Source: Candidatus Levyibacteriota bacterium
Lineage (GTDB): Bacteria > Patescibacteriota > Microgenomatia > Levybacterales > UBA12049
Length of the DNA: 64,000 bases
Direction: 5' to 3'
Assembly (NCBI GenBank): GCA_049519175.1
Contig: JBEKQZ010000001.1
Location: 335,679-399,678, forward strand
Part shown: positions 1,388-60,928 of the stretch, piece by piece
Layout of the letters: each line of letters opens with the position of its first letter
How positions within the stretch are numbered: the first letter of the stretch is position 1
Program-made: the position numbers and the translations under genes
The notes under the pieces: generated by a model
What the model saw: the letters and a program-made list of their open reading frames with translations, nothing else
The model's database searches: none
What the model was told of the DNA's origin: nothing

Positions 1388-1498
1388 TGTTTAAAATTAT
1401 TAGCTGATAGTTGTTACATTATAACAAAATATGCGAGCAACATTCTATCTGCTTGTGCCGTTTTAGGCAATGTCGTATACTTACAATCATTAAAAGTT

Positions 1499-2149: not shown

Positions 2150-3216
2150 GGGAGTTAAAAATTCTTCTAACAGGCAGTGGTGCGCCCGGATGGGTGAGTA
2201 TTTATAGATGTTTAAAAGCCGCCGACAGAAATTTGGAAATTTTAGGTTGTGATATTTCTTCTAAAACCGCAGGCGGATACATTGCCAAGAAATCATTTAC
2301 TGTCTCTCCGGGAAATTCACCCAAATATATCGGCGAATTACTTTCTCTTTGCGTTAAGGAAAAAGTGGATGTTGTTTTACCGATTACCGACGCGGAATTA
2401 TTGCCGTTGGCAAAAAAGAGCGGTTTGTTCGAAAAGAAAGGAATTAAAATTTGCGTTTCGTCAGTTGCCTCTTTACAGATAGCCGCCGATAAATTATCTC
2501 TTTTTCGATTTTTAGAAAAAAACGGTTTAGGGAACCCTCAATATCAATTGGTAAATTCATGGAAAGGTTTCGTCGTAGCGATAAAAAAACTGGGATATCC
2601 CAAGAAAGCGGTTTGTTTTAAACCAACTATTTCTTGGGGAAGCCGCGGCTTCCGTATTCTTGATCCAAAAATTAATGCTTATACTATTTACATTCAGCAG
2701 AAACCAACCAGCGTCTACACTTCTTTGGAAGAAATGGAAAGAATCCTCAATCAGGCAAAACAGTTCCCACAGTTATTAGTGATGGAATATTTGCCGGGAG
2801 ATGAATATACTGTTGATGTTTTTGTATCTCAAGGACAAGCGCTTTTTGTTATTCCCAGAAAGCGTATTCAAACAACGGGTGGCATTACTACGGAAGGAGT
2901 AGTTGAAAATAATAAAGAAATAATTGCGTTAAGTAAAAAGATAATTGAGAAGTTGGGACTAAATTATTCGGTCGGCGTGCAACTTAAATATAGCATCAAT
3001 GGCAAACCAAAAGTTCTGGAAGTAAATCCCCGCTTGCAAGGGACATCGGTTATTTCTTTTGCAGCTGGAGTAAATTTACCATACCTAACCATTTTGCAAT
3101 CTCAAGAAAAGAAATTACCCAAAATAAAAATTAAATATGGTATCCATATGTACCGCCATTGGGAAGAGATATTCATAAAGAACAAAAAAGTTATTAAAAT
3201 ATTTAATGAAGATTAA
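2146..3216 (+). CDS. ATP-grasp domain ligase (carboxylate-amine ligase, PylC/CPSase-like)
   Basis: Central and C-terminal ATP-grasp blocks (..EYLPGDEYTVDVF.., ..LEVNPRLQGTSV..). Start overlaps the deacetylase stop (ATGA). Confidence 0.7.
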   Translation: MRELKILLTGSGAPGWVSIYRCLKAADRNLEILGCDISSKTAGGYIAKKSFTVSPGNSPKYIGELLSLCVKEKVDVVLPITDAELLPLAKKSGLFEKKGIKICVSSVASLQIAADKLSLFRFLEKNGLGNPQYQLVNSWKGFVVAIKKLGYPKKAVCFKPTISWGSRGFRILDPKINAYTIYIQQKPTSVYTSLEEMERILNQAKQFPQLLVMEYLPGDEYTVDVFVSQGQALFVIPRKRIQTTGGITTEGVVENNKEIIALSKKIIEKLGLNYSVGVQLKYSINGKPKVLEVNPRLQGTSVISFAAGVNLPYLTILQSQEKKLPKIKIKYGIHMYRHWEEIFIKNKKVIKIFNED

Positions 3217-3826
3217 TTGGAGTTATCATATTCATACTAGTTATACGCATGGGCAGAATTCTGTTGAGCAAATTGCCGCATATTGTAAAAAGCTGAAAAT
3301 ACAGGAAATTGCGATTACCGAGCATGTCCGCCGTAAACCTTCTTATCAATTTAATAAATTACGTAATGACATTATTAATGCAGCGGAAAAACATGACATT
3401 CAAATATTTACAGGAATCGAAGCAAAAATTCTTCCCGACGGTTCATTGGACGCGCCAATAGATATCCTTTCTAAAGCGGACGTCGTTATTGGTTCCGTAC
3501 ATAGTTGGCCGGAAAATAAGAGCTTAATGGATGCATATACGCTGCTTGTCAAATCGCCGGCAACAATTATCGGACATCCGAAAATAGTGAATGAAGGACT
3601 TATCAGATTGCTCATTAAATATAAAAAGGTAATGGAGGTAAGTTATAAATATCCATTAAATGATAAGCAATTATGTTTAATACAAAAATTTCCTAAATTG
3701 AAGCTGTCGTTTGGAACTGACGCGCATCAATTAGCGGATATCAAAAACGCCCAAGAATATTTCTATGAAATAAGCAAAAAATATAATTTTACAAATCAAC
3801 TTTGGAAAATTGGCAAAAAAGTATAA
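3206..3826 (+). CDS. PHP-domain phosphoesterase (histidinol-phosphatase/CpsB-like)
   Basis: N-terminal HIHTSYTHG...ITEH metal-binding His motifs of the PHP family. Overlaps upstream gene by 11 nt. Confidence 0.65.
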   Translation: MKINWSYHIHTSYTHGQNSVEQIAAYCKKLKIQEIAITEHVRRKPSYQFNKLRNDIINAAEKHDIQIFTGIEAKILPDGSLDAPIDILSKADVVIGSVHSWPENKSLMDAYTLLVKSPATIIGHPKIVNEGLIRLLIKYKKVMEVSYKYPLNDKQLCLIQKFPKLKLSFGTDAHQLADIKNAQEYFYEISKKYNFTNQLWKIGKKV

Positions 3827-3893: not shown

Positions 3894-4850
3894 ATGAATG
3901 TTGCGGTGATAGGCGTCGGACAAATGGGCAGGACTCATGCTAGAACATACGCTGGGATGAAAGATGTATCTTTGGTCGCAGTCTCCGATCTAAACGTCCA
4001 ACTTGGCGAAAAAACAGCCAGAGAATTTAAGACAAAATTTTATCAGGATTATAAACAGATGCTCCAGATGGAAAAAATCGATGCGGTCTCAATCTGTGTT
4101 CCTACGAAGTTTCATTATGAAGTAGCAAAATATACTATTAATAATAAGCTTAATACCCTGTTGGAGAAACCAATCACAATGGATGTTAAAGAAGGATATA
4201 ATTTGTTGGCTATGGCAAAAAAAAATAGGGTAAAGTTTCTGGTCGGGCATATTGAAAGATTTAATCCGGCAGTAATAAAAGTTAAGGAAATGATAGCCGC
4301 AAAAGAATTGGGAGAAATTATTGCGATTATGTCACGCCGCGTCGGAGGCTTCCCTCCACAAATTGACGATGCAAATATCGCCGTTGACTTATCGATTCAT
4401 GATATTGATGTCGTTAACTATTTGCTGGGCGATAGTCCGAAAAAAGTTTATGTCAATAAACAGAAAAATCATATTACTCAAAGAGAAGATTCAGTCGAGT
4501 TTTTTCTAAAATATAAAAAAGCGTCGGCATTTTTGCAAGCTAATTGGGTAACTCCGGTAAAAATTAGGAAACTGAATATTACCGGTAAAGAGGGTTACTT
4601 GGAGATGGATTACATTACACAAGAAATAACCTACTATAAAAGTAATTACCGTAAATTTAAAAAAAGATATAAAACTTTTTCGGATTACGTGTTGGAATTT
4701 TCTAAACCTAAAAAAACAAAAGTTTTAGTCGAAAAAAAAGAACCGTTAAAAGAAGAAATTACGTATTTTTTGAATTGCGTTAGGGAAAATATTCGGATTA
4801 ATTCGCAATTTGCGGTCGAAGCGCTCAAAATTGCATTAACAAATAACTAG
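3894..4850 (+). CDS. Gfo/Idh/MocA-family NAD-dependent sugar-nucleotide oxidoreductase (WbpB-like)
   Basis: N-terminal Rossmann MNVAVIGVGQMGRTHA and an EKP motif. TAG stop at 4848-4850 immediately followed by the next ATG. Confidence 0.85.
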   Translation: MNVAVIGVGQMGRTHARTYAGMKDVSLVAVSDLNVQLGEKTAREFKTKFYQDYKQMLQMEKIDAVSICVPTKFHYEVAKYTINNKLNTLLEKPITMDVKEGYNLLAMAKKNRVKFLVGHIERFNPAVIKVKEMIAAKELGEIIAIMSRRVGGFPPQIDDANIAVDLSIHDIDVVNYLLGDSPKKVYVNKQKNHITQREDSVEFFLKYKKASAFLQANWVTPVKIRKLNITGKEGYLEMDYITQEITYYKSNYRKFKKRYKTFSDYVLEFSKPKKTKVLVEKKEPLKEEITYFLNCVRENIRINSQFAVEALKIALTNN

Positions 4851-5345
4851 ATGATACACAAAACAGCCGATATCCATAGCACAGCGAAAATTGACAAAAC
4901 CAGTTCGGTTTGGAATTGGGTTAAGGTTCGGGAGAAGGCGGTTGTCGGTAAGAATTGCATATTGGCTAAAGGAGTTTACGTTGGGAAAAGAGTTTTAATT
5001 GGTGACAATGTCAAAATCCAAAATAACGCCTCAATTTATGAGGGAGTGACTATAGAAGACGGTGTATTTATTGGTCCGCACGTAGTTTTTACCAATGACA
5101 AGTATCCGTCGGCAATAAATGCTCAAGGCAAAATAAAAAGTGAAAAAGATTGGAAACTCGAAAAAACAATTGTGAAACAGGGAGCGTCAATTGGCGCTAA
5201 TGCAACTATTTTACCGGGAATCATAATAGGTAGATGCGCAATGATCGGAGCCGGTTCCGTTGTGACAAAGGATGTTCCTGATTTTGGACTTGTTTATGGT
5301 AATCCGGCAAAACTGATTAAAAAACTGAAGAGGAGTCATAAATGA
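4851..5345 (+). CDS. Hexapeptide-repeat (left-handed beta-helix) sugar N-acetyltransferase (WbpD/WbbJ-like)
   Basis: Repeated [LIV]G.N..I hexapeptide units throughout. Sits between the oxidoreductase and the aminotransferase. Confidence 0.8.
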
Positions 5346-6430
5346 TTGCGATATCAAAGCTTGAATTAGGTAGAGAAGAGTTGTTAGCAGTATCGAAAGT
5401 AATAAAATCAGGAAATCTGACTCAAGGGAAAAAAGTGGCAGAGTTTGAGCAGGCTTTTGCAAAGTTTATTGGAGCAAAATATGCCGTGGCAGTTTCCAGC
5501 GGAACTAGCGCACTTTATCTAAGCCTATTGGCTTTAGGTATTGGTAAAGGTGACGAAGTCATCACTACGCCATTTAGTTTTATTGCTTCTTCCAATGCCA
5601 TTCTTTACACAGGAGCCAAGCCGGTTTTTGTGGACATAGATGAAAAAACTTTTAATATAGATACTAAATTGATTGAAAGGAGAATCACTAAAAAAACAAA
5701 AGCTATTCTGCCCGTGCATCTTTATGGTCTGCCGTGCGACATAAAAAATATCATAAGCATTGCCAGAAAACACCAGCTGTTTGTAATTGAAGACGCTTGC
5801 CAAGCCCATGGTGCTTCGTTTGGAAATCAAATGGTAGGGACTTTTGGAAATCTTGGTTGTTTTTCTTTTTACGCTACAAAGAATATGACCACGGTTGAGG
5901 GAGGTATGATTACAACCAACAGTCAAAAATTAGCGGAAAAATTACTGTTATTAAGAAACCATGGTTCTAAAATAAAATATCAGCATGAAATTCTTGGATA
6001 TAATTTTAGGATGACTGACCTTAACGCCGCAATGGGCTTAGAACAATTAAAAAAACTGCAGAATTCTAATAAGATTAGAGTTAACAATGCCAGCTATCTT
6101 ACGCAGCATTTGTCAAAAAATAAAAACCTTGAAGTTCCTTTTGTTCCGCCCGAGTTTTCTCATGTTTTTCATCAGTATACAATCCGGTTAGGCGAAAGTA
6201 TCAATCGCACCAAGATAATTGCAGCTTTAGATAAAAAGGGAATACAAACAGGAATTTATTATCCAATCCCAATTCACAAACAAAAACTTTATCAATCCCT
6301 GGGATTTAAAGATAAACTTCCTGTTGCCGAGAAAGCGGCTCAAGCAGTATTATCTTTGCCGGTTCACCCATATTTAACCAAGACAGAACTTAAGCGAATC
6401 GTTTCCGCGCTTTCTTCAATTTTGCAATAA
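5342..6430 (+). CDS. DegT/DnrJ/EryC1/StrS-family PLP-dependent sugar aminotransferase (WbpE-like)
   Basis: Family-typical blocks: [40 protein letters not shown] (Lys-PLP region). ATGA overlap with upstream gene. Confidence 0.9.
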
Positions 6431-8253: not shown

Positions 8254-9480
8254 ATGAAAACTTCTCTAATCTGTACGGTTGTAAACGAGGAAAAAACAAT
8301 TGCTGATTTTTTAAGTTCTATTTTCAATCAAACAAAATTGCCCGACGAAATAATAATTGTTGACGGCGGTTCAAGGGATAATACTATAGCTAAAATTTCC
8401 AATTTCCAATTTCCAATTTCCAAAAAGAAACTGCCAAATATCAAACTTTTGTTCAAAGTTGGAAACCGGTCGGTTGGTAGAAATGAGGCAATTAATAAAG
8501 CCACCGGAGATATAATTTTAATTTCCGACGCAGGTTGTATCTTGGACAAAAACTGGGTGAAAAATATTACCGCTCCCTTTTCGAATAGAAAGGTTGATGT
8601 AGTTGCGGGTTATTACAAAGGAGACGCAAAAAATATTTTCCAAAAATGTCTTATTCCTTATGTTTTAGTGATGGAAGATAAGCTGGTAGAAAATGATTTT
8701 TTGCCGGCAACCAGATCAATGGCTCTTCGAAAAACAGTTTGGAGAAAAGTAGGAAAATTCGATGAAAAACTTTCGCATAACGAGGACTACGCTTTCGCCA
8801 ACAAATTAAAAAAACACAAAGCGGAAATATTTTTTTGTAAAGACGCGGTTGTTAATTGGATTCCTAGAGCAAATTTAAAACAGGCTTTTGTTATGTTTTT
8901 TCGCTTTGCGTTGGGCGACGCAGAGGCAAAAATTTTTCGGGGTAAAGTAGTTTTCATTTTCCTAAGATATCTGTCTGCAATTTATTTACTTACACTTTGC
9001 TTAATTATGCACTCCGTGTTTCTTTGGATAATCTACATTTTTCTGGTTCTTCTATATGTCAATTGGACGATCTTAAAAAATTACAAATACGTCAATAACA
9101 TTAAGGCGTTTATATATTTACCCTTGTTGCAAATTACGTCGGACATCGCAGTCATGTCCGGTACAACGTATGGTCTAATTAAATTACCAGGGAATAATAT
9201 TAGATTTGTAAGAAGATCAAATAATGAATTTAAAAAGGTAATTATAAAAACGATTTTTGTCTACTTACTATCCATGGCTATTTTATTCGCCGGTTTCAGA
9301 AAGATAAGAGCCTTAATTCCACCGCCTGAAATATCGGAAGAAAAACTGGTAGGTTACGCGCAGTATTTTGGTTATCCGTTATCCTATGACACATATATTT
9401 TCATAGTAATAATACTGCTGCCGATTATTATTCTTATATTCTTCTCCTTTAAAATAAGAACAAATGAAAAGAGTAATTAA
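8254..9480 (+). CDS. Glycosyltransferase family 2 with C-terminal transmembrane segments
   Basis: ICTVVNEEKTI...IIVDGGSRDNT and a DAG block give the GT2 core. Contains the heptanucleotide repeat at 8394-8421. Confidence 0.8.
   Translation: MKTSLICTVVNEEKTIADFLSSIFNQTKLPDEIIIVDGGSRDNTIAKISNFQFPISKKKLPNIKLLFKVGNRSVGRNEAINKATGDIILISDAGCILDKNWVKNITAPFSNRKVDVVAGYYKGDAKNIFQKCLIPYVLVMEDKLVENDFLPATRSMALRKTVWRKVGKFDEKLSHNEDYAFANKLKKHKAEIFFCKDAVVNWIPRANLKQAFVMFFRFALGDAEAKIFRGKVVFIFLRYLSAIYLLTLCLIMHSVFLWIIYIFLVLLYVNWTILKNYKYVNNIKAFIYLPLLQITSDIAVMSGTTYGLIKLPGNNIRFVRRSNNEFKKVIIKTIFVYLLSMAILFAGFRKIRALIPPPEISEEKLVGYAQYFGYPLSYDTYIFIVIILLPIIILIFFSFKIRTNEKSN
8394..8421. repeat. Perfect tandem heptanucleotide repeat (AATTTCC)x4 inside the GT2 coding sequence
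   Basis: Units at 8394-8400, 8401-8407, 8408-8414 and 8415-8421. The unit length is not a multiple of 3. Confidence 0.9.
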
Positions 9481-11470
9481 TTTCTTAAAAAGCAACACGG
9501 ATTTATTGTTGGTATTCATTATTTCAACCGCTTTATCATTCGAGAATTTTTTGGAGATATGCACAGGATACCTACGCTACATGCGTTATGATCTACAACT
9601 AAATTTATTGTGGAATTATACGCAAATTACTCATCTAATTCCTTACAGAGATATCTACTATCCATATGGACTCCTGCGTTATTTTAGATTGGAGAATAAT
9701 GTTATTTCGTTATGCTATTACCTGATTATCCCGGTTCTTTTTACTATTCTTTACTTTATTCTTAAAAAAATTATCCAAGAGCGATTTTATAGGTATTTAT
9801 TCATTGCATTTATTGTATTTTTTGTTCTAAGATTTTCATATTTTGAAACGTTTACCCGTTATGGCTTATTTGCAGTATTATCGTTGTTTTTTACTTACGT
9901 GATTTATAGGTATGGTAAATATTCAAATAATTATACATTTCTTCCAGGAATACTCATAGGAGTGGTGATGTCTTTAATTAATGACCAGGGTTTATACATG
10001 TTTTTTGTGTTTTTGGGATTATTGGCATTCGATGCGATTGTAAAAATCAATAAAGGAGTGGTTTTTAATAGATACTTTATTAGCGCTTTCATAAGAAAGT
10101 TTCTCATGCTGGCACTTGGTATTTTTATAGGTATACTCCCTGTCTTAGTTTATTTATATTCCCGAGGCGGACTAGTCGAGTTTTTTCAATTTCCTTACAT
10201 AATCTCCCAGGTTGCAATCGTCGCTAAGGGTCCATTTTTTAATTATATACTTTATCCGGACAATCGCTTTACTTTAACTATTTTATTATTAGCCATTTTC
10301 ACAGTCATGATTAAACTGATTTTTTATAGACATAAGACAAGCTTGTTCTGGTATGTTGAAGCAGCTTTAATCTTGGCACTCTGTATTTTGGAGCAAAAAA
10401 GCATAATCAGGTCGATTGATTCCCAAATTACTTTTATCGCCTTTATTTTATTATTATTTTTAATTTACGATTTTATCGTTTGGTTTAAGCTAGATAAATC
10501 TCATCGGTTAGCCGGGAAAATAATCTATCTAGCGCTACCGTTGGTGGTTATAATGTTTTGGGGCCTATCGCCCTCATCAAATTTAAACACGAGCATAAAT
10601 AGTATGTTTAATAATTTTAGAGACGTTTATTCGAATACTTGCTTTAATACCGGTTTGATGAATAGTTATTCATCAAAGAATAATGATTACGTTAAAATTG
10701 TTAACTTACTAAAGAGTCAGCCGATATTTAACGGAAAGATTTATGCGTATCACCCAGGAGATTCTACTTTCTATATTTTACTGAAGCAAAAACCACCATA
10801 TTTTGACGGAGTTTTTGAAGATAATTCTGTTTCCACTCAAGAAAAAATGATTCAATATATAAAAGCAAACAATATTGAATATGTAACCTTAGACTTAAGC
10901 AAGGACTCCTTGCAAGACGGAGTGCCTCATTACATAAGAGAACCGATTGAATTTAAATATATTCTTAACAATTATTCCCCCTGGTTAATAATTGGGAATC
11001 ATTTAATCTTAAGAAAAAGTAGTCAGGATTTTTTTAGTGAACAATTACTTAATAAGATTTCTTTATATAAAAAGTATCTTTTAAGTGTTAACTTAGCAGT
11101 GATTCCCTTTTCGGAAGGATTTTATAAGTACCGTTATTTTACATTAGCGCCGTTAATTAAGACTAACAACGTAACTATTATAAATAATTTTCTTAAAAGA
11201 CAAAAAATGTCATCAGCGAATAAAGTGTTTGTTTTAATACCCAATAAGGAATTGAAGACTGTGTCACAAAATTACTTAAATCTAAGAACAAGTGATGGAA
11301 AAGAAACAGTTATTTATTTTAACGCTTGTAAGGTAAATAAACCATGTATAATAGACCTTTCAAATATACCGCTTTTTTACAAAAATAGGCAAATAAGCAG
11401 TTTATGCGTTGATAATAATTTTAAAGGAGATATCGAAATCTACAATATTAGTCTTAAGATTTTGTGGTAG
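9464..11470 (+). CDS. Large polytopic membrane protein (N-terminal ~370 aa multi-helix, C-terminal ~300 aa soluble domain); function unknown
   Basis: Hydrophobicity pattern only. Start overlaps the upstream GT2 stop. Confidence 0.4.
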   Translation: MKRVINFLKSNTDLLLVFIISTALSFENFLEICTGYLRYMRYDLQLNLLWNYTQITHLIPYRDIYYPYGLLRYFRLENNVISLCYYLIIPVLFTILYFILKKIIQERFYRYLFIAFIVFFVLRFSYFETFTRYGLFAVLSLFFTYVIYRYGKYSNNYTFLPGILIGVVMSLINDQGLYMFFVFLGLLAFDAIVKINKGVVFNRYFISAFIRKFLMLALGIFIGILPVLVYLYSRGGLVEFFQFPYIISQVAIVAKGPFFNYILYPDNRFTLTILLLAIFTVMIKLIFYRHKTSLFWYVEAALILALCILEQKSIIRSIDSQITFIAFILLLFLIYDFIVWFKLDKSHRLAGKIIYLALPLVVIMFWGLSPSSNLNTSINSMFNNFRDVYSNTCFNTGLMNSYSSKNNDYVKIVNLLKSQPIFNGKIYAYHPGDSTFYILLKQKPPYFDGVFEDNSVSTQEKMIQYIKANNIEYVTLDLSKDSLQDGVPHYIREPIEFKYILNNYSPWLIIGNHLILRKSSQDFFSEQLLNKISLYKKYLLSVNLAVIPFSEGFYKYRYFTLAPLIKTNNVTIINNFLKRQKMSSANKVFVLIPNKELKTVSQNYLNLRTSDGKETVIYFNACKVNKPCIIDLSNIPLFYKNRQISSLCVDNNFKGDIEIYNISLKILW

Positions 11471-11488: not shown

Positions 11489-12736
11489 TTAAATAATCTT
11501 AAAGCCGGGTTCAATCAGGATAAATTTGCCTCCGTTGCTTTTGAACTTCCTATTTTTCTCAATAATTTCCTTACTGAAATTCCAGGCAAAAATTAGAAGA
11601 TAATCAGGTTTAGTTTCATAAATTTTATCTTCTGCATAGATAGGAATATGTGTTTCCGGAGTAAATAGGCCCTGTTTATACGGTGTTGAATCAACGATGT
11701 AATCGATTATCTTAGAGCCTATGCCAAAATAGTTAAGCAGTACATTTGCTTTTGCTGCGGCACCGTAGCCCACAATTGTTTTTTTAGATTTCTTTAATTT
11801 TATAAGTTTTTTGACCGTATTTATTTTAAGTTTTTCAACTCGTTTTGCGAATTCAATATAGGCATTAATTTCGTGCAGTCCGAATTTTTTTTCTTCATAT
11901 AATAACTTGTTAATAATATTTGTTCTTACTTTTATTTTTGTATTTTTCTTCTTTTTCCAAAATACCCTTAATGAGCCGCCGTCCAAATCGCTCTTTTGTA
12001 TGTCAAATATTTCCAGGGAAGAATCTTTTGCTAAATACATAAGAGACTTGACGCTAAAATAAGATAAATGTTCATGGTAGATGGTGTCGAACAAATTTTT
12101 TTCTAAAAGATCGTAGGAATAGGGAAAATGCATTACAAAAATTCCATCATCATCAAGAAGAATTTCTCCTCCCTTAATTACTTCATGAAGGTCTGGAATA
12201 TGTGCGATGACATTGGTTGCGGTAATAGCTTTGGCTTTGCCATATTTTTTAACAGCTTTCTTAGCAAGCGTAGAATCGAAATATCCAAGGATCGTTTCTA
12301 CGCCATTTAAGTTAGCGATTTTTACTAGATTTTCAGCAGGGTCAATCCCCAAAATTTTCATTCCAATGTTTTTAAAGCAAACCAAAAGGCTTCCATCATT
12401 ACTGCCGACGTCAATCACTAAAGAATTTTTCCTAAGCTTGCTAATTTTAGCGATTTCTTTCGCCATCTGTTTAAAATAATTAATCCTCGTCTTAGATGCA
12501 GATGGAATATATAAATAATTACCAAACATTATTTTTGAGTTCACTAAATATTTTAATTGCATTAGGGAACAGTTTGAGCAGAAACAGACGGAAAGCGCAT
12601 ATCTTGGTTCTTTTTGCTTTAAGTCTTCTTTTCTAAGAAACCCATTCGGGATCGGTTGTTCTCCCAAATCTATAACGTCCAAGAGCTTATTAGATCCGCA
12701 AATTCTGCATTTTTTTACCGTTATTAAGTTGATCAT
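11489..12736 (-). CDS. NDP-hexose C-methyltransferase-like protein (N-terminal Cys4 zinc ribbon + SAM methyltransferase + C-methyltransferase C-terminal domain; TylCIII/NovU-like architecture)
   Basis: CRICGS...CSNCS zinc ribbon at the N-terminus. SAM-binding block LVIDVGSNDG. Length ~415 aa matches the sugar C-methyltransferase family. Confidence 0.75.
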   Translation of the reverse strand: MINLITVKKCRICGSNKLLDVIDLGEQPIPNGFLRKEDLKQKEPRYALSVCFCSNCSLMQLKYLVNSKIMFGNYLYIPSASKTRINYFKQMAKEIAKISKLRKNSLVIDVGSNDGSLLVCFKNIGMKILGIDPAENLVKIANLNGVETILGYFDSTLAKKAVKKYGKAKAITATNVIAHIPDLHEVIKGGEILLDDDGIFVMHFPYSYDLLEKNLFDTIYHEHLSYFSVKSLMYLAKDSSLEIFDIQKSDLDGGSLRVFWKKKKNTKIKVRTNIINKLLYEEKKFGLHEINAYIEFAKRVEKLKINTVKKLIKLKKSKKTIVGYGAAAKANVLLNYFGIGSKIIDYIVDSTPYKQGLFTPETHIPIYAEDKIYETKPDYLLIFAWNFSKEIIEKNRKFKSNGGKFILIEPGFKII

Positions 12737-12753
12737 ATATTAAGATAATTCTC

Positions 12754-14016
12754 CTATATTACTGTAAATTTTGGTAGGGGAAAAATAAAATGGCCCCCGT
12801 TGTCTAAATATTTTTTCTCCCTTTGTAGAAATTCTTGCTTAAAAAACCAAGGTAGCACTAACATGTAATCTGGTTTTTCTTTTCTCGCCTGTTCCTCAGA
12901 AATAATTGGAATTCCCATGGAAGATATCATCTTGCCCCATTTCTCTGGGTTTCTTTCTACAGCCTTTTTAATCAGCGTATGGTCTAATTTAAAATATTGG
13001 AGAAGAGTATTTCCTCGGGTTGACGCTCCATAAAGATAAATTAATTTCCCTTTTTTACTTTCTTTCTTGACGAAATTTAGGATTTTTTCTTTATTATTTT
13101 TTATTTTTTTAGCAAAATTTAGATAAACTTTTCTATTATTTAGTTTAAGTCTTTTTTCCTGACTTTCCATTTTCAGAACTGCTTTGGTTATTTTTCTTTT
13201 TCCCTTCGTTGTAATATAGGTTCTGAAACTACCTCCATTAAGTTCTCTTTCTTCTAAATCAAAAACCTCCAGATTATGTTTTTCCAGCAAATTATTTAAA
13301 GATAAGAGAGAATAATATTCAAGGTGCTCGTGGACAATATTATCGAAAGCGCTTTGCTTTAGCATTTCAACCAAGTAGTTTTGTTGAATTATAAAAATTC
13401 CATCGTCTTTCATAATTTTTTTTACGTCTTCAATAAATTTGTTTGGTTCTGCCATATCATAGAAACAAGATATTGCTGTGACTATGTCAGCTTTTACATC
13501 TTTGACAACTTTTTGATAAGAGGCATAACTAAAAAAGTCATTAATTACTTTATTGGTATTTTTCTGAGATTCTTTTGCAAATTTCGTTATTGGCTCAACG
13601 GCAATCCTGTAGATATTTTTAGGATAATTTTTTAATAAAGTGCCATCATTTGCGCCGATGTCGACAACAACAGTATCTTTAGTTTTAGTCTTTATTCTCT
13701 TAAGTGCTTTTTGTGTAATTTCTTTAAGTTCGTTTTGCATAGTTTGATTAATGTCGGATTTATAACCATATCTTTCTGTGTAAAGATATTTTGCGGGCGT
13801 AGTGTAATCTAATTGAACAAGAAAGCATTTTTTACAAAGGACAATGCTAAGGGGAAAGGAGCGAGGTTTTCTATTAATTTTTGTAAAATCGGATAAATAT
13901 TGATTTCCTAAGGAAATAATATTAATTAAGTTTTTGGAATTGCAAGATCGACATTTTTTGATTTTCATCTCTGAGGCAGTCGGTCTATTATAGCCTTTAA
14001 AATCCTGAAATTTCAA
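12754..14016 (-). CDS. NDP-hexose C-methyltransferase-like protein, paralog of 11489..12736
   Basis: CRSCNS...CKKC zinc ribbon and VVVDIGANDG SAM block. Same length and collinear similarity to the adjacent gene. Confidence 0.75.
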   Translation of the reverse strand: MKFQDFKGYNRPTASEMKIKKCRSCNSKNLINIISLGNQYLSDFTKINRKPRSFPLSIVLCKKCFLVQLDYTTPAKYLYTERYGYKSDINQTMQNELKEITQKALKRIKTKTKDTVVVDIGANDGTLLKNYPKNIYRIAVEPITKFAKESQKNTNKVINDFFSYASYQKVVKDVKADIVTAISCFYDMAEPNKFIEDVKKIMKDDGIFIIQQNYLVEMLKQSAFDNIVHEHLEYYSLLSLNNLLEKHNLEVFDLEERELNGGSFRTYITTKGKRKITKAVLKMESQEKRLKLNNRKVYLNFAKKIKNNKEKILNFVKKESKKGKLIYLYGASTRGNTLLQYFKLDHTLIKKAVERNPEKWGKMISSMGIPIISEEQARKEKPDYMLVLPWFFKQEFLQREKKYLDNGGHFIFPLPKFTVI

Positions 14017-14020
14017 GTAG

Positions 14021-15124
14021 TTATTTCGGGGAGCTAATTAGCTTAAGCTTAATATCTCCGTATATTTTTCTAACAAAACTTATTTTTTGGTAAAGATGGT
14101 AATAAGTTAATTTTAAATAAACTTCCATTTCGCGTTTTTTAAAAAATGTTAAAGATTTACTTAAGTCTTTGTATATTTCAAAAAGTTCTTTGGGATTAAT
14201 TTCATATTTGTGTTTTTTGTAATGTTCGAGTCGATTAATAAGAAACATAATTACGTAGTCAGATAAAAACTTCTGATATTCCTCCTTACATTTAAACCGA
14301 TCTGCTAGTCGAGCAATGGTTTTATTAAACCCAATTACCCCTCTTTTATATTCATCAAGGGTATCTTTTTTTCTTCCGTAATTTTGTTCATGAAGGGCAA
14401 AACTTGCTAGCTCCTTGTTTATTATTACGAATTTAGTTTTGGCGGCAATTTTAAGTAAGTATGCAAAATCCGAAAAATGTGCAGAGTTATAATCGGGGAC
14501 TCCTGGAATTTCCGCTACCAAATCTCTTGATATTAAACTAGCGTTCCATAAATAATGTGGAAATATTTCCTGTTTAAAAAATTGTTTAAAAAATAACCGG
14601 GGTTCTAGTATTTCAATACTGCCATATTTTTTATTTTTGTTTACCAGTGAATTAAATCCAAACTTTAAGTGATTTACCTCTGCCACTTTTTTAGTTTTGA
14701 CGTCTGCGTAAGAAGCTCCCCAAAACGCTTTCATATTCGGATATTTCTTTAGCGCTCTAGCAAATACTACAAGCATATCAGCAGTGGGTGGATCATCGTC
14801 TGCCATAATGGAAACAAAATCACCTTTAGAAAGAGAAAAAGCTTTATTGAAACTTTTCACCATCCCGATGTGCTTTCTATTTTTATGATAAATTATTTTA
14901 TTTGATCTAAATGATGCTACGACTTTCTCCGAAGTGTTCTCGGAGGGGTCTTCTGAAATTACAATTTCAATGTTCGGATATTTTTGTTTAAGGATTATTT
15001 TAATGGTCGATTTTAAAAATTCAGGTCTTTTATACGTTGAGATACAGAAGCTGACTAACGGACACCGTTTCATTATAGGCAAAATAATAGCATTCTGGTT
15101 GGGAGTAGTCAATGTGAAAGTCAA
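14021..15124 (-). CDS. Glycosyltransferase family 2
   Basis: VSFCISTYKRPEFL...IVISEDPS... and DDD blocks typical of GT2. Confidence 0.8.
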   Translation of the reverse strand: MTFTLTTPNQNAIILPIMKRCPLVSFCISTYKRPEFLKSTIKIILKQKYPNIEIVISEDPSENTSEKVVASFRSNKIIYHKNRKHIGMVKSFNKAFSLSKGDFVSIMADDDPPTADMLVVFARALKKYPNMKAFWGASYADVKTKKVAEVNHLKFGFNSLVNKNKKYGSIEILEPRLFFKQFFKQEIFPHYLWNASLISRDLVAEIPGVPDYNSAHFSDFAYLLKIAAKTKFVIINKELASFALHEQNYGRKKDTLDEYKRGVIGFNKTIARLADRFKCKEEYQKFLSDYVIMFLINRLEHYKKHKYEINPKELFEIYKDLSKSLTFFKKREMEVYLKLTYYHLYQKISFVRKIYGDIKLKLISSPK

Positions 15125-15187: not shown

Positions 15188-16168
15188 ATGAAAAAAAATA
15201 TACGAGTAATAGTTACAGGCGGAACGGGATTTATTGGCTGCAATATGATAGCTTTTCTTAAAAAGAAGGGTTTTTATGTCCGCTGCGTCGATATTAAAAT
15301 TTCCGAACGGGAAAAACAGCGAGGGAAAATGTTTAATCAAGCTGATGAAGTACTCAGGCTTGATTTAAGGGAGCAAAAAAATGTTGACAAAGCGGTTGCG
15401 GGAATGGATTGGGTGTTCCATTTTGCATCAGACATGGGAGGGGTAGGCTATTTCCATACGCGTAATTTCTACCCGATAATCAACAATATGCAAATAGATC
15501 TAAACATGCTTAGAGCGACGGAAGAGTCCCATATTAAAAGATTTTTTTATTCCTCTTCTGCATGTATTTATCCCACTAACCTGCAAATGGTAGAGAGTGA
15601 AGCAATTCGTCTGTCAGAAGAAATGAAATATCCTGCTTTTCCTGACCAAAATTACGGATGGGAGAAACTATTAATGTTAAGGCTTTGCGAAGAAGCGCCT
15701 TTCGACGCTAGAGTCGGGATTTTTAACACAATATATGGTATGTACCAGGAAATTGAAGGGGAACGGATGAAGTTTCCGACTGCAATTGCAACAAAAGTAT
15801 TAAAAAGCAAATTAAAAGGTAGGCCGATTGAGATATGGGGTAATGGGAAGCAAATTCGTTCGTTTCTCTACATAGACGATTTATGTGAAAGGGTATACAG
15901 GATTATGACCATGCCGTATAAAGGGCCAGTTAATGTCTCTGCCGAGGAATCTATTACGATTGAAGAAACTGCGAGAATGCTTTGCGAGATTGCCGGCATT
16001 AAGCCAAATTTTAAATTTAACTTAGATAAGCCGAGCGGGGTGTTATCAAGAGCTATCGATAACACGAAGTTTAACAGAGCTTATAAATATAAAGACAAAG
16101 TTTCGCTTCGGGAAGGGTTTACCCGCCTATATGCGTGGGTTGAAGAAGAACAAAAAGATACCGCATAG
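15188..16168 (+). CDS. NAD-dependent nucleotide-sugar epimerase/dehydratase (SDR family)
   Basis: VTGGTGFIG Rossmann motif at the N-terminus and a YxxxK-containing central region. Confidence 0.85.
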   Translation: MKKNIRVIVTGGTGFIGCNMIAFLKKKGFYVRCVDIKISEREKQRGKMFNQADEVLRLDLREQKNVDKAVAGMDWVFHFASDMGGVGYFHTRNFYPIINNMQIDLNMLRATEESHIKRFFYSSSACIYPTNLQMVESEAIRLSEEMKYPAFPDQNYGWEKLLMLRLCEEAPFDARVGIFNTIYGMYQEIEGERMKFPTAIATKVLKSKLKGRPIEIWGNGKQIRSFLYIDDLCERVYRIMTMPYKGPVNVSAEESITIEETARMLCEIAGIKPNFKFNLDKPSGVLSRAIDNTKFNRAYKYKDKVSLREGFTRLYAWVEEEQKDTA

Positions 16169-16186
16169 GCAACTTACTCACGATTT

Positions 16187-17650
16187 ATGGTCGAAGACAA
16201 AGATATTCTAAAAGCAAATATAATCCAAGGCTTTGGAACCCTCATCGCAAGAGAAGTCCTTTTGAAATTTTTTTCTTTTGTCGGGCAGATATTTTTAGCC
16301 CGGCTCTTGGCCCCATCGGACTTTGGTGTATATGTAATTATTGTTTTTGTTGTAAATTTCTTAAGTTTATTCTCCGACGTTGGATTATCGTTGGCTATTA
16401 TCCAAAAAACCAAAGAGCCTACAAAAGAAGAGCTATCAAGTGTGTTTTTCTTAAAAATGGGCCTATCTTGTTTAATTGTTATTCTTATTTGGATATTCGC
16501 ACCGTTTCTCAGAAGTTTTTATCCGGCATTTTCTGCTTCAAACGTATTAATGACAAGAATGTTGTCTCTAATTATAATTACGGGGAGTATCAGGTCTATT
16601 CCCATCTCATTATTGGAAAGAAAAATAAAATACAATCTGATTTCTTTAATCGACGTTTATGGAGTTTCAATTTATTACATCGTTTCCATAGCGTTTGCTT
16701 TAATGCATTTCGGGGCTTGGAGCTTTATCTTTGGAGCTTTGACAAAGGAAGTTGGAGAGACAATAATTTTATATGGAATCCAGCCTTTTTTCCCTAAGCT
16801 TGCTTATTCTAAGCATAATGTTAAAAGTATGATTAAATTTGGTATATACATACAAGGGAATGGTCTTGTTAATTTTCTTGGTTCTTCTATAACGCCATTA
16901 TTGGGAGGGAGGATTTTTGGGACATCTAGGGTAGGACTATTAGATTTTGCATATAGTATAGCTTCTTTGCCTGAGCTAGTGGGGGTAAACTTTGGAAGAG
17001 TGGCATTTGCTGGGTATTCAAGAATTCAAGAACAAAAAGAATTGCTATTAAAGTCCATTCGTAAATCAATGAGTATGCTTTCTATTTTATTATATATTTT
17101 TCCGGTTGTAGTACTTTGTTTTGGCAGTCAATTGGTGCCGTTATTTTTTTCCGACAAATGGATACCGGCAATACCTGCTTTATATTGGTATAGTTTGGAT
17201 GTGTTTTTTCTTCCTATTATTATTGCTTTAGGTCAAATAATCTTAGCGGTCGGAAGATCGAAAGAAGTATTCTGGGCAACATTTATTACTGCAGTCGCCG
17301 GATGGATCGGAATATTTTTCTTGATTCATATTTTTGGATTTGTGGGAATAGCGATAGATTATTTGTTAACAATTGTGCTATTGAGCATATTTTATCTTTC
17401 GATATCAGTCAAAAGTGGATTTAAGTTTCCGTTGGTATCAATCCTAGGTCCAAAAATGATTGTTGCCATTCTTACAATCGCCTTTTCTTTAATACTGGAT
17501 ACAGTCTTTAACCAAACCTTTGTTATGCTTATCGTGAAGCTTTGCATGAGTGGTGCATTATATTTATCCCTGATGTTCTTATTGGCAAAGAACGATACAG
17601 TGGAACTTTTTCTGCTGGTTATTAATTTTGTTAAGCAAAAACGAATATGA
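16187..17650 (+). CDS. Polysaccharide biosynthesis protein / Wzx-type oligosaccharide flippase (MOP superfamily)
   Basis: About 12-14 hydrophobic helices over 487 aa with a Wzx-like N-terminal region (..GFGTLIAREVLLKFFSFVGQIFLARLL..). Confidence 0.8.
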   Translation: MVEDKDILKANIIQGFGTLIAREVLLKFFSFVGQIFLARLLAPSDFGVYVIIVFVVNFLSLFSDVGLSLAIIQKTKEPTKEELSSVFFLKMGLSCLIVILIWIFAPFLRSFYPAFSASNVLMTRMLSLIIITGSIRSIPISLLERKIKYNLISLIDVYGVSIYYIVSIAFALMHFGAWSFIFGALTKEVGETIILYGIQPFFPKLAYSKHNVKSMIKFGIYIQGNGLVNFLGSSITPLLGGRIFGTSRVGLLDFAYSIASLPELVGVNFGRVAFAGYSRIQEQKELLLKSIRKSMSMLSILLYIFPVVVLCFGSQLVPLFFSDKWIPAIPALYWYSLDVFFLPIIIALGQIILAVGRSKEVFWATFITAVAGWIGIFFLIHIFGFVGIAIDYLLTIVLLSIFYLSISVKSGFKFPLVSILGPKMIVAILTIAFSLILDTVFNQTFVMLIVKLCMSGALYLSLMFLLAKNDTVELFLLVINFVKQKRI

Positions 17651-18666: not shown

Positions 18667-19197
18667 ATGAAAGTAATTGATACAAAACTTCAGGGAGTAA
18701 AAGTTATTGAACCGGATAAATTCGATGACAATCGGGGGTATTATCTTAAATCGTTTGAAAAAAAAGCTTTCAGGGAGCAAGGAATTGATTTTGATATTGT
18801 TCAGGTAAGCCATTCTTCTAATCAGGCAAAAGGAACAATAAGGGGAATGCACTTTCAACTTGAACCCTTTGCTCAAGATAAAATCATTTTTTGTGTTAAA
18901 GGGAAAGTGTTCGATATAGCAATAGATTTACGTAAGAATTCCGCTACCTATGGAGAATGGTATGGGTTAGAGCTTTCAGAGGAGAATAAACAGATTTTGT
19001 ATATTCCAAAAGGCTTTGCGCATGGGTTTGAAACTCTGGTTGATAATACGGAGGTAATCTATTTTATTTCAGAAGTATATTCAAAAGAACATGAATCCGG
19101 AATTAAGTGGAATGAAGTTGCCTTTGGCATCGACTGGCCCTTAGAACCTACCGTAATCTCAGAGAAAGATCAAAAGTGGCCTGCATACGAAAGCTAA
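18667..19197 (+). CDS. rfbC: dTDP-4-dehydrorhamnose 3,5-epimerase
   Basis: Classic RmlC blocks: KVIEPDKFDDNRGYY, QVSHSSNQAKGTIRGMHFQ, FDIAIDLRKNSATYGEWYG, LYIPKGFAHGF. Confidence 0.9.
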   Translation: MKVIDTKLQGVKVIEPDKFDDNRGYYLKSFEKKAFREQGIDFDIVQVSHSSNQAKGTIRGMHFQLEPFAQDKIIFCVKGKVFDIAIDLRKNSATYGEWYGLELSEENKQILYIPKGFAHGFETLVDNTEVIYFISEVYSKEHESGIKWNEVAFGIDWPLEPTVISEKDQKWPAYES

Positions 19198-22573: not shown

Positions 22574-23331
22574 TGATAAGCATAATTATTTTAACCAAAA
22601 ACGAAGAGAAAAATATTTTAGATTGTCTGGAAACCGTTAATTGGGCAGATGAAATAATTATTCTCGATGATAATTCAATTGACAGAACCGTCGAAATCGC
22701 AGAGTCACTAAAATTAAAGCATTTAAAAGTTTTACAGCGGGTGCTGGACGGAGATTTTTCCAAACAACGAAATTTTACTTTGTCGCATGTTAAGAGCGAA
22801 TGGGCGCTGTTTATCGACGCCGATGAAAGAGTAACGCCGCAGCTTCGTAAAGAAATCAATGATTTTATTATTGAAGAGAAAGAAAAGCCGGTATTTAACG
22901 GGATGTATCTAAAAAGACAGGATATGCTTTGGGGAAAATTGCTAAAACATGGTGAGACAGGAAATATAAAACTTTTGCGGTTGGCCAGAAAAGATGCCGG
23001 AATATGGCATGGTAAAGTACACGAACGGTGGGTGATTGAAGGGAAGACCGATACGTTTGAAAATTATTTAATTCATTATCCACATCAAACGGTGGCGGAT
23101 TTTTTAGCCGAAATTAATTTGTATACTACTATCCGGGCTAAAGAACTTTTCGAAAGTAATGAAAAAAGTTCAATCTTCAAAATCATTTTTTATCCAAAAG
23201 CCAAATTTATCCAGAATTTTATTTTCCGGTTAGGTTTTCTGGATGGATTAGAAGGATTAGTGCAGGCAATTCTAATGAGTTTCCATTCTTTTCTGGTAAG
23301 AGCTAAATTATGGACTTACCTAGACAAATAA
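22573..23331 (+). CDS. Glycosyltransferase family 2
   Basis: ISIIILTKNEEKNI...IIILDDNSIDRT and a DADE block. Confidence 0.85.
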   Translation: MISIIILTKNEEKNILDCLETVNWADEIIILDDNSIDRTVEIAESLKLKHLKVLQRVLDGDFSKQRNFTLSHVKSEWALFIDADERVTPQLRKEINDFIIEEKEKPVFNGMYLKRQDMLWGKLLKHGETGNIKLLRLARKDAGIWHGKVHERWVIEGKTDTFENYLIHYPHQTVADFLAEINLYTTIRAKELFESNEKSSIFKIIFYPKAKFIQNFIFRLGFLDGLEGLVQAILMSFHSFLVRAKLWTYLDK

Positions 23332-60926: not shown

Positions 60927-60928
60927 AT

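Follow-up and report, generated by a model that had tools for sequence, protein, structure and literature searches.

Two predicted C-methyltransferases of deep divergence in a surface-glycan cluster of a Levybacteria-like CPR genome

Two adjacent genes for apparent NDP-hexose C-methyltransferases, here called MT1 and MT2, lie in the variable part of a Wzx-type surface-glycan cluster, some 33 kb long, in the Levybacteria-like genome of an uncultured, ultra-small bacterium of the CPR. The question raised by this locus is what the two enzymes do, and whether they act on one sugar or on two. By "the window" we mean the whole stretch of DNA analysed, 64,000 nucleotides in length; the features discussed are listed in Table 1. 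Over the 11,387 bp compared, the window is 100% identical to its parent contig of 579,907 bp (ENA ERZ27250144, k141_64433). The earlier note on this DNA had described two neighbouring same-strand genes for proteins of about 415 residues each, and the pair is indeed present on the minus strand, with MT1 at 415 residues and MT2 at 404. The MT2 reading frame would extend over 12754-14016 if read from a TTG at 14016, but the homologs of MT2 are 403-404 residues long, making the ATG at 13968 the likelier start. The TTG at 14016 overlaps a -35-like hexamer. A promoter scan gave no excess over shuffled sequence, a terminator scan found none, and the only Rfam matches in the window are three tRNAs, none of them in the MT region.

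Table 1. Coordinates, in the window, of the methyltransferase genes, their key sites and the neighbouring genes
Feature	Position	Strand	Remarks
MT1, predicted NDP-hexose C-methyltransferase, TcaB9/KijD1/MtmC subfamily (His179, Tyr220)	11489..12736	-	415 aa, ATG start
MT2, predicted NDP-hexose C-methyltransferase, TylCIII/EryBIII subfamily (Asp171, Val212)	12754..13968	-	404 aa
MT1 Cys4 zinc ribbon, C10/C13/C53/C56	12569..12709	-	PF08421, 5.5e-21
MT2 Cys4 zinc ribbon, C6/C9/C45/C48	13825..13953	-	PF08421, 2.3e-12
MT1 active-site motif I-Y220-H-E222-H223 (TcaB9 Tyr222, Glu224, His225)	12068..12082	-	alignment to TcaB9/KijD1/MtmC
MT2 active-site motif I-V212-H-E214-H215	13324..13338	-	alignment; Val at TcaB9 Tyr222, where TylCIII has Cys
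MT2 Asp171 codon (TcaB9 His181 position), subfamily-defining substitution	13456..13458	-	alignment
60-bp stretch with the lowest GC of the window (10%)	13082..13141		inside MT2; Lys/Asn-rich helix linking core to C-terminal domain
Family-2 glycosyltransferase (GT2), first gene of apparent GT2-MT2-MT1 operon	14021..15124	-	PF00535, 3e-16
GDP-mannose 3,5-epimerase (GME)-like SDR	15188..16168	+	divergent from MT operon; PDB 2c59, 4e-53
Wzx/MOP-family flippase of the glycan locus	16187..17650	+	PF13440, 3e-57
RmlC, dTDP-4-dehydrorhamnose 3,5-epimerase	18667..19197	+	PF00908, 3e-65; TIGR01221, 212 bits (cutoff 155.75)
668-aa polytopic membrane protein, converging on MT1	9464..11470	+	nine hydrophobic segments, then a soluble tail of ~300 aa

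Both proteins score above the gathering threshold for three Pfam models, the zinc-binding domain PF08421, the SAM methyltransferase domain PF13489 and the C-methyltransferase C-terminal domain PF08484 (E values from 1e-12 to 1e-55), so that the architecture proposed earlier, a Cys4 ribbon, a SAM core and a C-methyltransferase C-terminal domain, holds for each of them, including the C-terminal domain on which the assignment turned. MT1 matches three sugar C3-methyltransferase structures over its full length (4rv9 at 2e-85, 5t64 at 1e-68 and 3ndi at 2e-66), while MT2 matches 4rv9 at 5e-46 and aligns end to end with structures of this kind. An AlphaFold2 model of MT2 (pLDDT 79) was compared by Foldseek with MtmC, KijD1 and TcaB9, giving TM scores of 0.85-0.87 over about 400 columns, where the next-best folds reach only about 0.3. 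Neither protein contains hydrophobic segments, and both are predicted to be soluble. The TylCIII-type family assignment of the earlier note thus agrees with alignment, fold and, for MT2, the tree described below. MT1 and MT2 are ordinary members of a large and widespread C-methyltransferase family, for which the annotation is sound and unsurprising, and their most likely activity is to place methyl branches on carbon atoms of activated sugars.

We inspected the positions known from TcaB9. The zinc-ribbon cysteines of both proteins align with C13/C16/C54/C57 of TcaB9, and the counterparts of its Tyr76, Glu224 and His225 are kept, together with the GxNDG SAM motif, as Y74, E222, H223 and VGSNDG in MT1 and as Y67, E214, H215 and IGANDG in MT2. 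Across 104 family members, residues N115, D116, E224 and H225 (TcaB9 numbering) are at least 95% conserved. The five residues that have been mutated in TcaB9, according to the mutant names in PDB titles (Tyr76, His181, Tyr222, Glu224 and His225), are all present in MT1, whose residue signature is YHYHEH; the mutagenesis work reportedly gave His225 a catalytic role. Both reading frames are intact and keep all catalytic residues. The claim of extreme AT-richness, with stretches of about 13% GC, is correct for short stretches and modest at the level of whole genes: MT2 has 30.2% GC (second lowest of 50 genes) and MT1 32.9% (sixth lowest), against a window mean of 37.5%, and the lowest stretch codes for the linker helix of MT2, which spans residues 279-305 in the model.

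The two proteins had been called tandem paralogs, which is right insofar as they are adjacent and of one family, but they are not a recent duplication. They are 32-33% identical by alignment and are parted by the basal split of a neighbor-joining tree of 104 sequences, a combination that rules out a recent tandem duplication. One side of the split, with Asp at position 181 (TcaB9 numbering), holds MT2, TylCIII, EryBIII, AviG1 and Coxiella CBU_0691; the other, with His181 and Tyr222, holds MT1, MtmC, KijD1 and TcaB9. The same division is visible in larger samples, as Asp occupies position 181 in 142 of the 150 best MT2 representatives, none of which has Tyr at 222, while His and Tyr stand at these positions in 118 of 120 MT1-type matches. 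Asp171 of MT2 is invariant in 28 MT2 orthologs. TylCIII, EryBIII, AviG1 and CBU_0691 show FYDL and CHEH at the signature sites in a published alignment (PMC3539893, supplement). By D171, V212 and its clade, MT2 belongs to the TylCIII/EryBIII subfamily, and by H179, Y220 and its clade MT1 belongs to that of TcaB9, KijD1 and MtmC. Since Asp with Val or Cys is the normal pattern of the TylCIII/EryBIII subfamily, it gives no sign of lost function in MT2. This two-residue signature, Asp with Cys or Val as against His with Tyr at TcaB9 181/222, separates TylCIII-type from TcaB9-type enzymes and may be of practical use.

The best-known relatives on each side come from antibiotic pathways. TylCIII (also TylC3), EryBIII and AviG1 are actinomycete 3-C-methyltransferases of dTDP-4-keto-2,6-dideoxyhexoses in mycarose-type pathways. 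MT2 shares their three domains, is 33-36% identical to them over its full length, and has in common with them FYD(M/L), with the Asp at TcaB9 181, (V/C)HEHLEYY, YGAST(R/K)GN and LVLPW, but it lies in a surface-glycan locus rather than an antibiotic cluster, and its nearest relatives outside the CPR are linked to Gmd, of the GDP pathway. TcaB9, KijD1 and MtmC are dTDP-sugar C3-methyltransferases of solved structure (PDB 3NDI, 5T64 and 4RV9, respectively), and MT1 is 31-36% identical to them over its full length (E values from 2e-85 to 2e-66). They act, however, on 2,6-dideoxy or 3-amino-2,3,6-trideoxy dTDP sugars, and the matching pathway genes are absent here; the closest annotated relatives of MT1 (39% identical) instead follow the CDP-glucose genes rfbF-rfbG.

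Turning to the neighboring genes, the GT2, MT2 and MT1 genes share a strand and are separated by short gaps (4-52 bp between GT2 and MT2, 17 bp between MT2 and MT1), suggesting that they form one operon. The order of GT2 followed by an MT gene is kept at four other loci (L003, L004, L086 and L087), and GT2 is a candidate transferase for the methylated sugar. This apparent operon, together with the Wzx and glycosyltransferase surroundings, supports the surface-glycan role proposed earlier. The earlier note had also placed the pair next to RmlC and an SDR epimerase, which is true only loosely: the SDR gene is 1.2 kb away, beyond GT2 and divergent, and the RmlC gene is 4.65 kb away within the same cluster. 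Nor is the SDR a generic epimerase. It resembles GDP-mannose 3,5-epimerase, scoring 184 bits to PDB 2c59 as against 78 bits for GDP-fucose synthase, and it conserves the GME residues Cys145, Tyr174, Lys178, Lys217 and Arg306, whose roles are described in PMC6678494. An RmlD gene lies about 1 kb outside the window edge, and genes for a phosphomannomutase and a mannose-6-phosphate isomerase cupin are found at 60.5-62.3 kb. The 668-residue membrane protein has no Pfam or NCBIfam match; its homologs adjoin MT2 at three other loci (L044, L084 and L029) and are recurrent neighbors of MT2 orthologs, and it could possibly be a GT-C-type transferase. A Wzx gene is likewise a usual neighbor: of 17 CPR-type loci, 10 have one no more than 3 kb from MT2.

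From the domains, fold, conserved residues, subfamilies and locus context we infer the substrate, methylation position, nucleotide and downstream steps as follows. It is reasonably probable that MT1 and MT2 are anciently diverged, non-redundant SAM-dependent C-methyltransferases of NDP-4-keto-6-deoxyhexoses, serving two sugars or two nucleotides in the making of a surface glycan. A 4,6-dehydratase encoded elsewhere in the genome of about 580 kb would supply the NDP-4-keto-6-deoxyhexose; by analogy with the family, the conserved Glu-His pair would take the C3 proton beside the 4-keto group, and the resulting enolate would attack the methyl group of SAM. The branched 4-keto sugar might then be epimerized, reduced, or both, for which RmlC, RmlD and the GME-like SDR are candidates at this locus, and the neighboring GT2 would probably transfer it onto a lipid-linked glycan. 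Most likely each enzyme has its own sugar or nucleotide (one dTDP-linked and one GDP-linked, for example) and the two do not share one molecule, and the best reading is of two separate C-methyl deoxysugar branches that feed a variable surface glycan.

It is also conceivable that both enzymes act in sequence on a single 4-keto-6-deoxyhexose, one at C3 and the other at C5, to give a doubly C-branched deoxysugar such as the earlier note suggested. An enolate can form on either side of the 4-keto group, at C3 or at C5, and enzymes with this scaffold are able to methylate C5: NovU, CouU and CloU, all of the same family and architecture, are dTDP-sugar 5-C-methyltransferases of the noviose pathway. 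C3 and C5 regiochemistry is not deducible from sequence. Moreover, TylCIII-type and TcaB9-type genes are directly adjacent not only here and in the relatives L003 and L004 but also, independently, in the distant loci L045 and L063, where RmlC-like cupin genes follow the pair. Copy number, however, argues against this. In 13 of 17 well-flanked CPR-type loci there is no second MT gene within 10 kb of MT2; in L001, L086 and L087 an MT1-type gene occurs by itself; and close relatives have one, two or three MT genes, the three-gene cases including a third gene, MTa. Independent roles are favored by MT2 standing alone at most related loci and MT1-type genes at some others. The enzymes nearest to both proteins are also of known or proposed C3-methylating activity, and we know of no natural sugar with methyl branches at both C3 and C5. 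We therefore regard sequential action on one sugar as unlikely, and the specific proposal that one nucleotide sugar is methylated at both C3 and C5 by a TylCIII-type and a TcaB9-type enzyme together, with a third enzyme in close relatives, as improbable.

These neighborhoods come from a metagenome scan and exact-protein look-ups, the genome-contig scan with MT1 having given two loci only. Homologs themselves are plentiful. A search with MT2 returned 2,538 clusters (at 50% identity) with E<=1e-30, including many CPR and proteobacterial members; each of the two proteins has thousands of CPR homologs; and copies of the C-methyltransferase family occur on 169 plasmids, mostly rhizobial or from Bacillus, Brachyspira and Roseibium. 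The idea that such genes are rare outside actinomycetes is therefore wrong at the gene level.

A further possibility is that MT1, MT2 or both do not C-methylate NDP-4-keto sugars, but instead carry out 4-ketoreduction, as MtmC can, or methylate a lipid-linked or finished glycan or some other metabolite. No 4,6-dehydratase (RmlB, Gmd or RfbG) and no sugar-1-phosphate nucleotidyltransferase was found in the window or in the 10 kb on each side, so substrate supply is assumed and the nucleotide is not fixed by the locus. A search for the same two activities across all CPR-type loci likewise found none, and in those loci MT2 usually lies away from sugar-nucleotide genes, among glycosyltransferases, Wzx and GT-C-like proteins. 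MtmC is bifunctional, reducing the 4-keto group when NADPH is bound (PMC10269268), and MT2 has no counterparts of TcaB9 His181 and Tyr222. Against this, the Asp/Val pattern is, as noted, the usual state of its subfamily; both enzymes retain their C-terminal domain and SAM motif along with the Tyr and the Glu-His pair; the two soluble proteins have no hydrophobic segments; and homologs are fused to or lie beside 4,6-dehydratases. Gmd is the commonest neighbor of MT2-type genes (19 of 146 neighbors), is found 2-32 bp upstream at about 10 loci and is commonly adjacent among the nearest non-CPR relatives of MT2. MT2-type proteins also occur in fusion with SDRs of the Gmd family, with a nucleotidyltransferase and with a GT4. 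MT1-type genes directly follow rfbF-rfbG on Roseibium and Bacillus plasmids. These neighborhoods and fusions support nucleotide-sugar substrates, and we give a different chemistry little credence.

As to the kind of nucleotide sugar, no mycarose-type partners (2,3-dehydratase or 3-ketoreductase) were found among the 50 ORFs of the window, so a mycarose-like product is not expected and the enzyme would probably use a 6-deoxy sugar, not a 2,6-dideoxy one. We considered whether Gmd adjacency and fusions mark the Asp181 clade as GDP-specific, but this is ruled out, as the dTDP-dependent TylCIII, EryBIII and AviG1 share its signature and clade. MT1-type relatives are linked to the CDP pathway. Nucleotide preference (dTDP, GDP or CDP) clearly varies within both subfamilies and is not readable from sequence. 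A close parallel outside the actinomycetes is CBU_0691 of Coxiella burnetii, a TylCIII-type protein 37% identical to MT2 and encoded in an LPS/glycan locus. The order proposed for GDP-virenose in Coxiella is a dehydratase (Gmd, CBU_0689), then the C-methyltransferase, then a GDP-sugar epimerase/reductase (Fcl-like, CBU_0688) (PMC3539893, PMC13252051), a pathway biochemically unproven as of 2026. A GDP-sugar epimerase-like SDR stands beside the MT operon here as well, but neither the window nor its flanks contain Gmd.

Finally, functional redundancy, in which the two enzymes would yield an identical C-methyl sugar, one of the genes being either a spare of recent acquisition or in the course of being lost, is consistent with the variable gene content of close relatives (MTa is absent from this locus, and the GME-like and RmlC genes present here are absent from L003 and L004) and with the 30-33% GC of the 9.4-15.1 kb block, which is below the rest of the window and typical of exchangeable glycan cassettes, but it is doubtful given two intact reading frames with complete catalytic residues, the deep split between the proteins, and the fact that the orthologs of each gene are conserved separately among CPR genomes (70-98% identity).

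Most known C-branched deoxysugars come from antibiotics and from a small number of LPS antigens. This locus and its thousands of homologs indicate that CPR/Patescibacteria routinely encode enzymes for C-branched sugars in the variable parts of surface-glycan clusters. Proteins from both subfamilies have links or fusions to GDP- and CDP-sugar dehydratases, and are candidates for assays of long-proposed but unproven routes such as that to GDP-virenose. If a pair of this kind did methylate both C3 and C5, a CPR surface would carry a doubly, even triply, C-branched deoxyhexose new to glycobiology, and such a sugar might influence recognition between episymbiont and host. More generally, very little is known of the surface chemistry of the CPR, and because CPR bacteria are believed to live attached to host cells, uncommon sugars on their surface could plausibly determine recognition by hosts or phages.

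Both MT1 and MT2 (C-methyltransferases of 415 and 404 aa) carry the PF08421 zinc-binding domain, the PF13489 class I SAM methyltransferase core and the PF08484 C-methyltransferase C-terminal domain, all far over threshold in Pfam; NCBIfam gave no specific model for either. They align end to end with the solved sugar C3-methyltransferases MtmC (4RV9), KijD1 (5T64) and TcaB9 (3NDI), at 2e-85, 1e-68 and 2e-66 for MT1 and 5e-46, ~7e-37 and ~1e-37 for MT2. An AlphaFold model of MT2 (pLDDT 79, pTM 0.78) matches these three structures with TM 0.85-0.87, against ~0.3 for all other methyltransferase folds. MT1 and MT2 are therefore C-methyltransferase-family proteins, as the earlier note had proposed, and the C-terminal domain on which that proposal turned is present in both.

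The two proteins share 32-33% identity, and MT1 is nearer to MtmC (36%) than to MT2. The five residues mutated in TcaB9, as confirmed by PDB titles, are Tyr76, His181, Tyr222, Glu224 and His225; the TcaB9 work reportedly assigned roles to them, with His225 as the proposed base. Aligned to the solved enzymes, MT1 retains all five (Y74, H179, Y220, E222 and H223). MT2 retains Y67, E214 and H215, with Asp171 at position 181 and Val212 at position 222 (TcaB9 numbering), both unchanged across 28 MT2 orthologs. When 1.84 billion representatives were searched without bias, Asp filled position 181 in 142 of the 150 top-ranking MT2-type proteins, with Tyr at position 222 in none of them, and His/Tyr was found at 181/222 in 118 of 120 MT1-type hits. 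Neighbour joining of 104 sequences gives a tree whose basal split parts an Asp type from a His/Tyr type, without mixing. The alignment in the supplement of PMC3539893 prints TylCIII, EryBIII, AviG1 and Coxiella burnetii CBU_0691, and each of the four shows the Asp/Cys signature together with the remaining MT2 motifs; they are 33-37% identical to MT2 versus 27-30% to MT1, and fall inside the Asp-type clade. Because signature, identity and clade are shared with these four, MT2 is of the TylCIII/EryBIII type, and MT1 is of the TcaB9/KijD1/MtmC type. With such low identity and positions on opposite sides of the basal split, the two are not recent duplicates, and the "tandem paralogs" of the earlier note do not hold as a duplication.

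Homologs of MT2 are nearly all 403-404 aa, so its true start is probably the ATG at 13968. The TTG that opens the longer ORF is the -35 hexamer of the region's top promoter-like match, TTGAAA-18-TATAAT (11/12, 13987-14016, minus strand), a consensus match only; the promoter scan overall gave no excess above shuffled sequence. This overlap would support the ATG start, and the match hints at a possible internal promoter for MT2-MT1. Since GT2, MT2 and MT1 are co-directional with short gaps (4-52 bp for GT2/MT2 and 17 bp for MT2/MT1), the arrangement suggests a single operon, from which SDR-Wzx-GT2-RmlC-GT4 is transcribed divergently. The "extreme AT content" ascribed to the pair stands at short scale, as the most AT-rich 60 bp of the window (13082-13141, 10% GC) lies inside MT2, where it codes for a Lys/Asn-rich helix, but is too strong at gene level, where MT2 has 30.2% GC and MT1 32.9% (ranks two and six from the bottom among 50 genes) versus a window mean of 37.5%. 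GC is low across the entire 9.4-15.1 kb block, a common trait of exchangeable glycan cassettes.

Features of the methyltransferase region and of related loci (window positions unless a contig is named)
Feature	Position	Strand	Remarks
MT1	11489-12736	-	intact ORF, 415 aa, ATG start
MT2	12754-14016 from TTG; ATG 13968	-	intact ORF; 404 aa from ATG
GT2	14021-15124	-	co-directional with MT2 and MT1
GME-like SDR	15188-16168	+	best solved relative by far GDP-mannose 3,5-epimerase 2c59, 4e-53; GDP-fucose synthase 78 bits
RmlD	L090 12441-13274		~1.05-1.9 kb left of window position 1; true RmlD, same glycan cluster; 5u9c, 2.6e-57
PIG-L deacetylase, ATP-grasp ligase, PHP phosphoesterase	1373-3826		ahead of WbpB/D/E-like trio
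GFO/IDH/MocA oxidoreductase, LbH acetyltransferase, DegT aminotransferase	3894-6430	+	WbpB/WbpD/WbpE-like route to 2,3-diacetamido sugar
Large protein without family match	9464-11470	+	nine predicted hydrophobic segments, ~300-aa soluble tail
Large protein without family match	23310-25079	+	nine predicted hydrophobic segments
GGDEF diguanylate cyclase	38137-38952	-	overlaps dnaE end
Phosphomannomutase and 145-aa mannose-6-P isomerase cupin (both in 60.5-62.3 kb), cupin-type glucose-6-P isomerase	59872-62317	-	in a row
MTa-MT2-MT1	L003 7461-11248; L004 7448-11248		after same GT2 gene
TcaB9-type methyltransferase	L094 3587-9184		region in which it lies right after rfbF-rfbG, Roseibium plasmid
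TcaB9-type methyltransferase	L095 5149-8236		region in which it lies right after rfbF-rfbG, Bacillus thuringiensis plasmid
TylCIII-type fusion proteins			P0260, P0276, P0280, P0286, P0289, P0293, P0302, P0312, P0327, P0259, P0268, P0379

Sequence beyond the left window edge was taken from a longer contig (L090), 100% identical to the window over the 11,387 bp compared. The glycan cluster covers ~33 kb, window positions 1-28,000 and ~4 kb further left, where it stops at genes for a signal peptidase, for ParB and for the ribosomal proteins L27 and L21. GT2 and GT4 genes are numerous in it, alongside GT2-PMT_2 fusions, polytopic proteins that are PMT-like or unknown, a flippase of the Wzx kind, a Wzy_C-like protein and a WbpB/D/E-like trio; the genes ahead of the trio suggest an amino-acid-decorated amino sugar. 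The two large proteins without a family match could be GT-C-like transferases or polymerases of a novel kind, and homologs of the one with the soluble tail adjoin MT2 in three other loci (L029, L044 and L084). The neighbouring SDR, previously taken for a generic epimerase, is GDP-mannose 3,5-epimerase-like by its best solved relative and by its conserved GME catalytic residues (Cys, Tyr/Lys, Lys and Arg). A GME-type enzyme in a glycan locus of the Patescibacteria-type ultra-small bacteria (CPR) suggests L-galactose/L-gulose-type sugars, or else that it serves as a GDP-4-keto epimerase/reductase. With 212 bits against a cutoff of 155.75, RmlC ranks as a true equivalog. Elsewhere in the window, the phosphomannomutase and isomerase genes form a compact hexose-phosphate supply operon, in which no GDP-mannose pyrophosphorylase was seen, and this reduced CPR genome has a diguanylate cyclase gene.

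The best-supported reading is that MT1 and MT2 are non-redundant SAM-dependent C-methyltransferases acting on NDP-4-keto-6-deoxyhexoses. Because no 4,6-dehydratase or nucleotidyltransferase is found in the 64 kb window or 10 kb either side, the gene for the dehydratase making the substrate is assumed to lie in another part of the genome. Genes for a 2,3-dehydratase and a 3-ketoreductase are absent from the 50 window ORFs scanned, which favours 6-deoxy products (of the 3-C-methyl-rhamnose, evalose or virenose type) over 2,6-dideoxy ones. Each enzyme would supply one branched deoxysugar to a strain-variable surface glycan, with the adjacent GT2 as its likely transferase. As the locus has the dTDP enzymes RmlC and RmlD together with the GDP-type GME-like SDR, a dTDP/GDP split between the two methyltransferases is plausible but unproven.

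The homologs that carry a name belong to Candidatus Levybacteria, Curtissbacteria, Gottesmanbacteria and "Patescibacteria group". Two loci at 82-86% identity (L003 and L004) keep the GT2-MT arrangement with three methyltransferase genes in a row, MTa being the additional one, and are without the GME-like and RmlC genes; near-identical backbones differ in their sugar-modifying genes. Near MT2 in 17 well-flanked CPR-type loci are GT4 (11), large GT2 (11), Wzx (10) and GT2-PMT fusion (9) genes; no RmlC and no GME-like SDR is present within 10 kb in any of them. L045 and L063, two unrelated loci, likewise have a TylCIII-type gene directly adjoining a TcaB9-type gene, with RmlC-like genes following in both; in L045, Gmd (a sugar-nucleotide 4,6-dehydratase) and an Fcl-like SDR lie ~1.6-2.5 kb upstream of the pair. 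This recurrent pairing hints that both enzymes might methylate one sugar twice, which is chemically possible, but loci with a single methyltransferase gene prevail, a second being within 10 kb of MT2 in only 4 of the 17 and MT1-type genes occurring alone too, each time after a GT2 gene; we regard a doubly methylated product as improbable.

In non-CPR metagenome loci, Gmd very often precedes MT2-type genes (19 of 146 neighbours; 2-32 bp upstream in ~10 loci). About a quarter of the best 150 MT2-type (TylCIII-type) representatives (34/150) are fusions. The ten scanned carry a Gmd-family SDR (seven), a nucleotidyltransferase, a GT4 domain or a UDP-glucose dehydrogenase fragment (one each); the SDR part may be N- or C-terminal, and in an NCBIfam scan of ten fusions the gmd model was the best match for 9 of 9 with an SDR part. 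Another activity, such as ketoreduction as in MtmC (PMC10269268) or use of a non-NDP substrate, is disfavoured by such dehydratase fusions and by the conserved catalytic set.

We considered, from Gmd adjacency and fusions, the possibility that the Asp-type clade is GDP-specific; this was rejected, as the dTDP-dependent TylCIII, EryBIII and AviG1 carry the same signature within the same clade. The Asp/Cys-Val versus His/Tyr signature sorts subfamilies, not nucleotides. The annotated proteins closest to MT1 (39% identity, His/Tyr type) are on Roseibium and Bacillus plasmids, directly after the CDP-glucose genes rfbF-rfbG. For plasmids of the Bacillus cereus group and of marine alphaproteobacteria, that adjacency implies C-methyl sugars linked to CDP, which recall vinelose. 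Evidently, enzymes of this family have been recruited for sugars carried on dTDP, GDP and CDP.

Rarity of these genes beyond the actinomycetes is unsupported, because the family is large and widespread, with 2,538 clusters (50% identity) at E<=1e-30 and 6,916 at E<=1e-10, thousands of 90%-identity clusters in CPR, and members on 169 plasmids (mainly Sinorhizobium, Streptomyces, Rhizobium, Bacillus, Leisingera and Brachyspira), and because MT2 orthologs are already labelled "NDP-4-keto-2,6-dideoxyhexose 3-C-methyltransferase" by JGI. What is rare is chemical characterisation of these sugars, the Coxiella virenose route being still unproven in 2026. The annotation of the pair is correct, if somewhat refined here. 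The natural TylCIII-type fusions are ready-made candidates for substrate definition, and multiply C-branched sugars on CPR surfaces would be a low-probability but interesting possibility.
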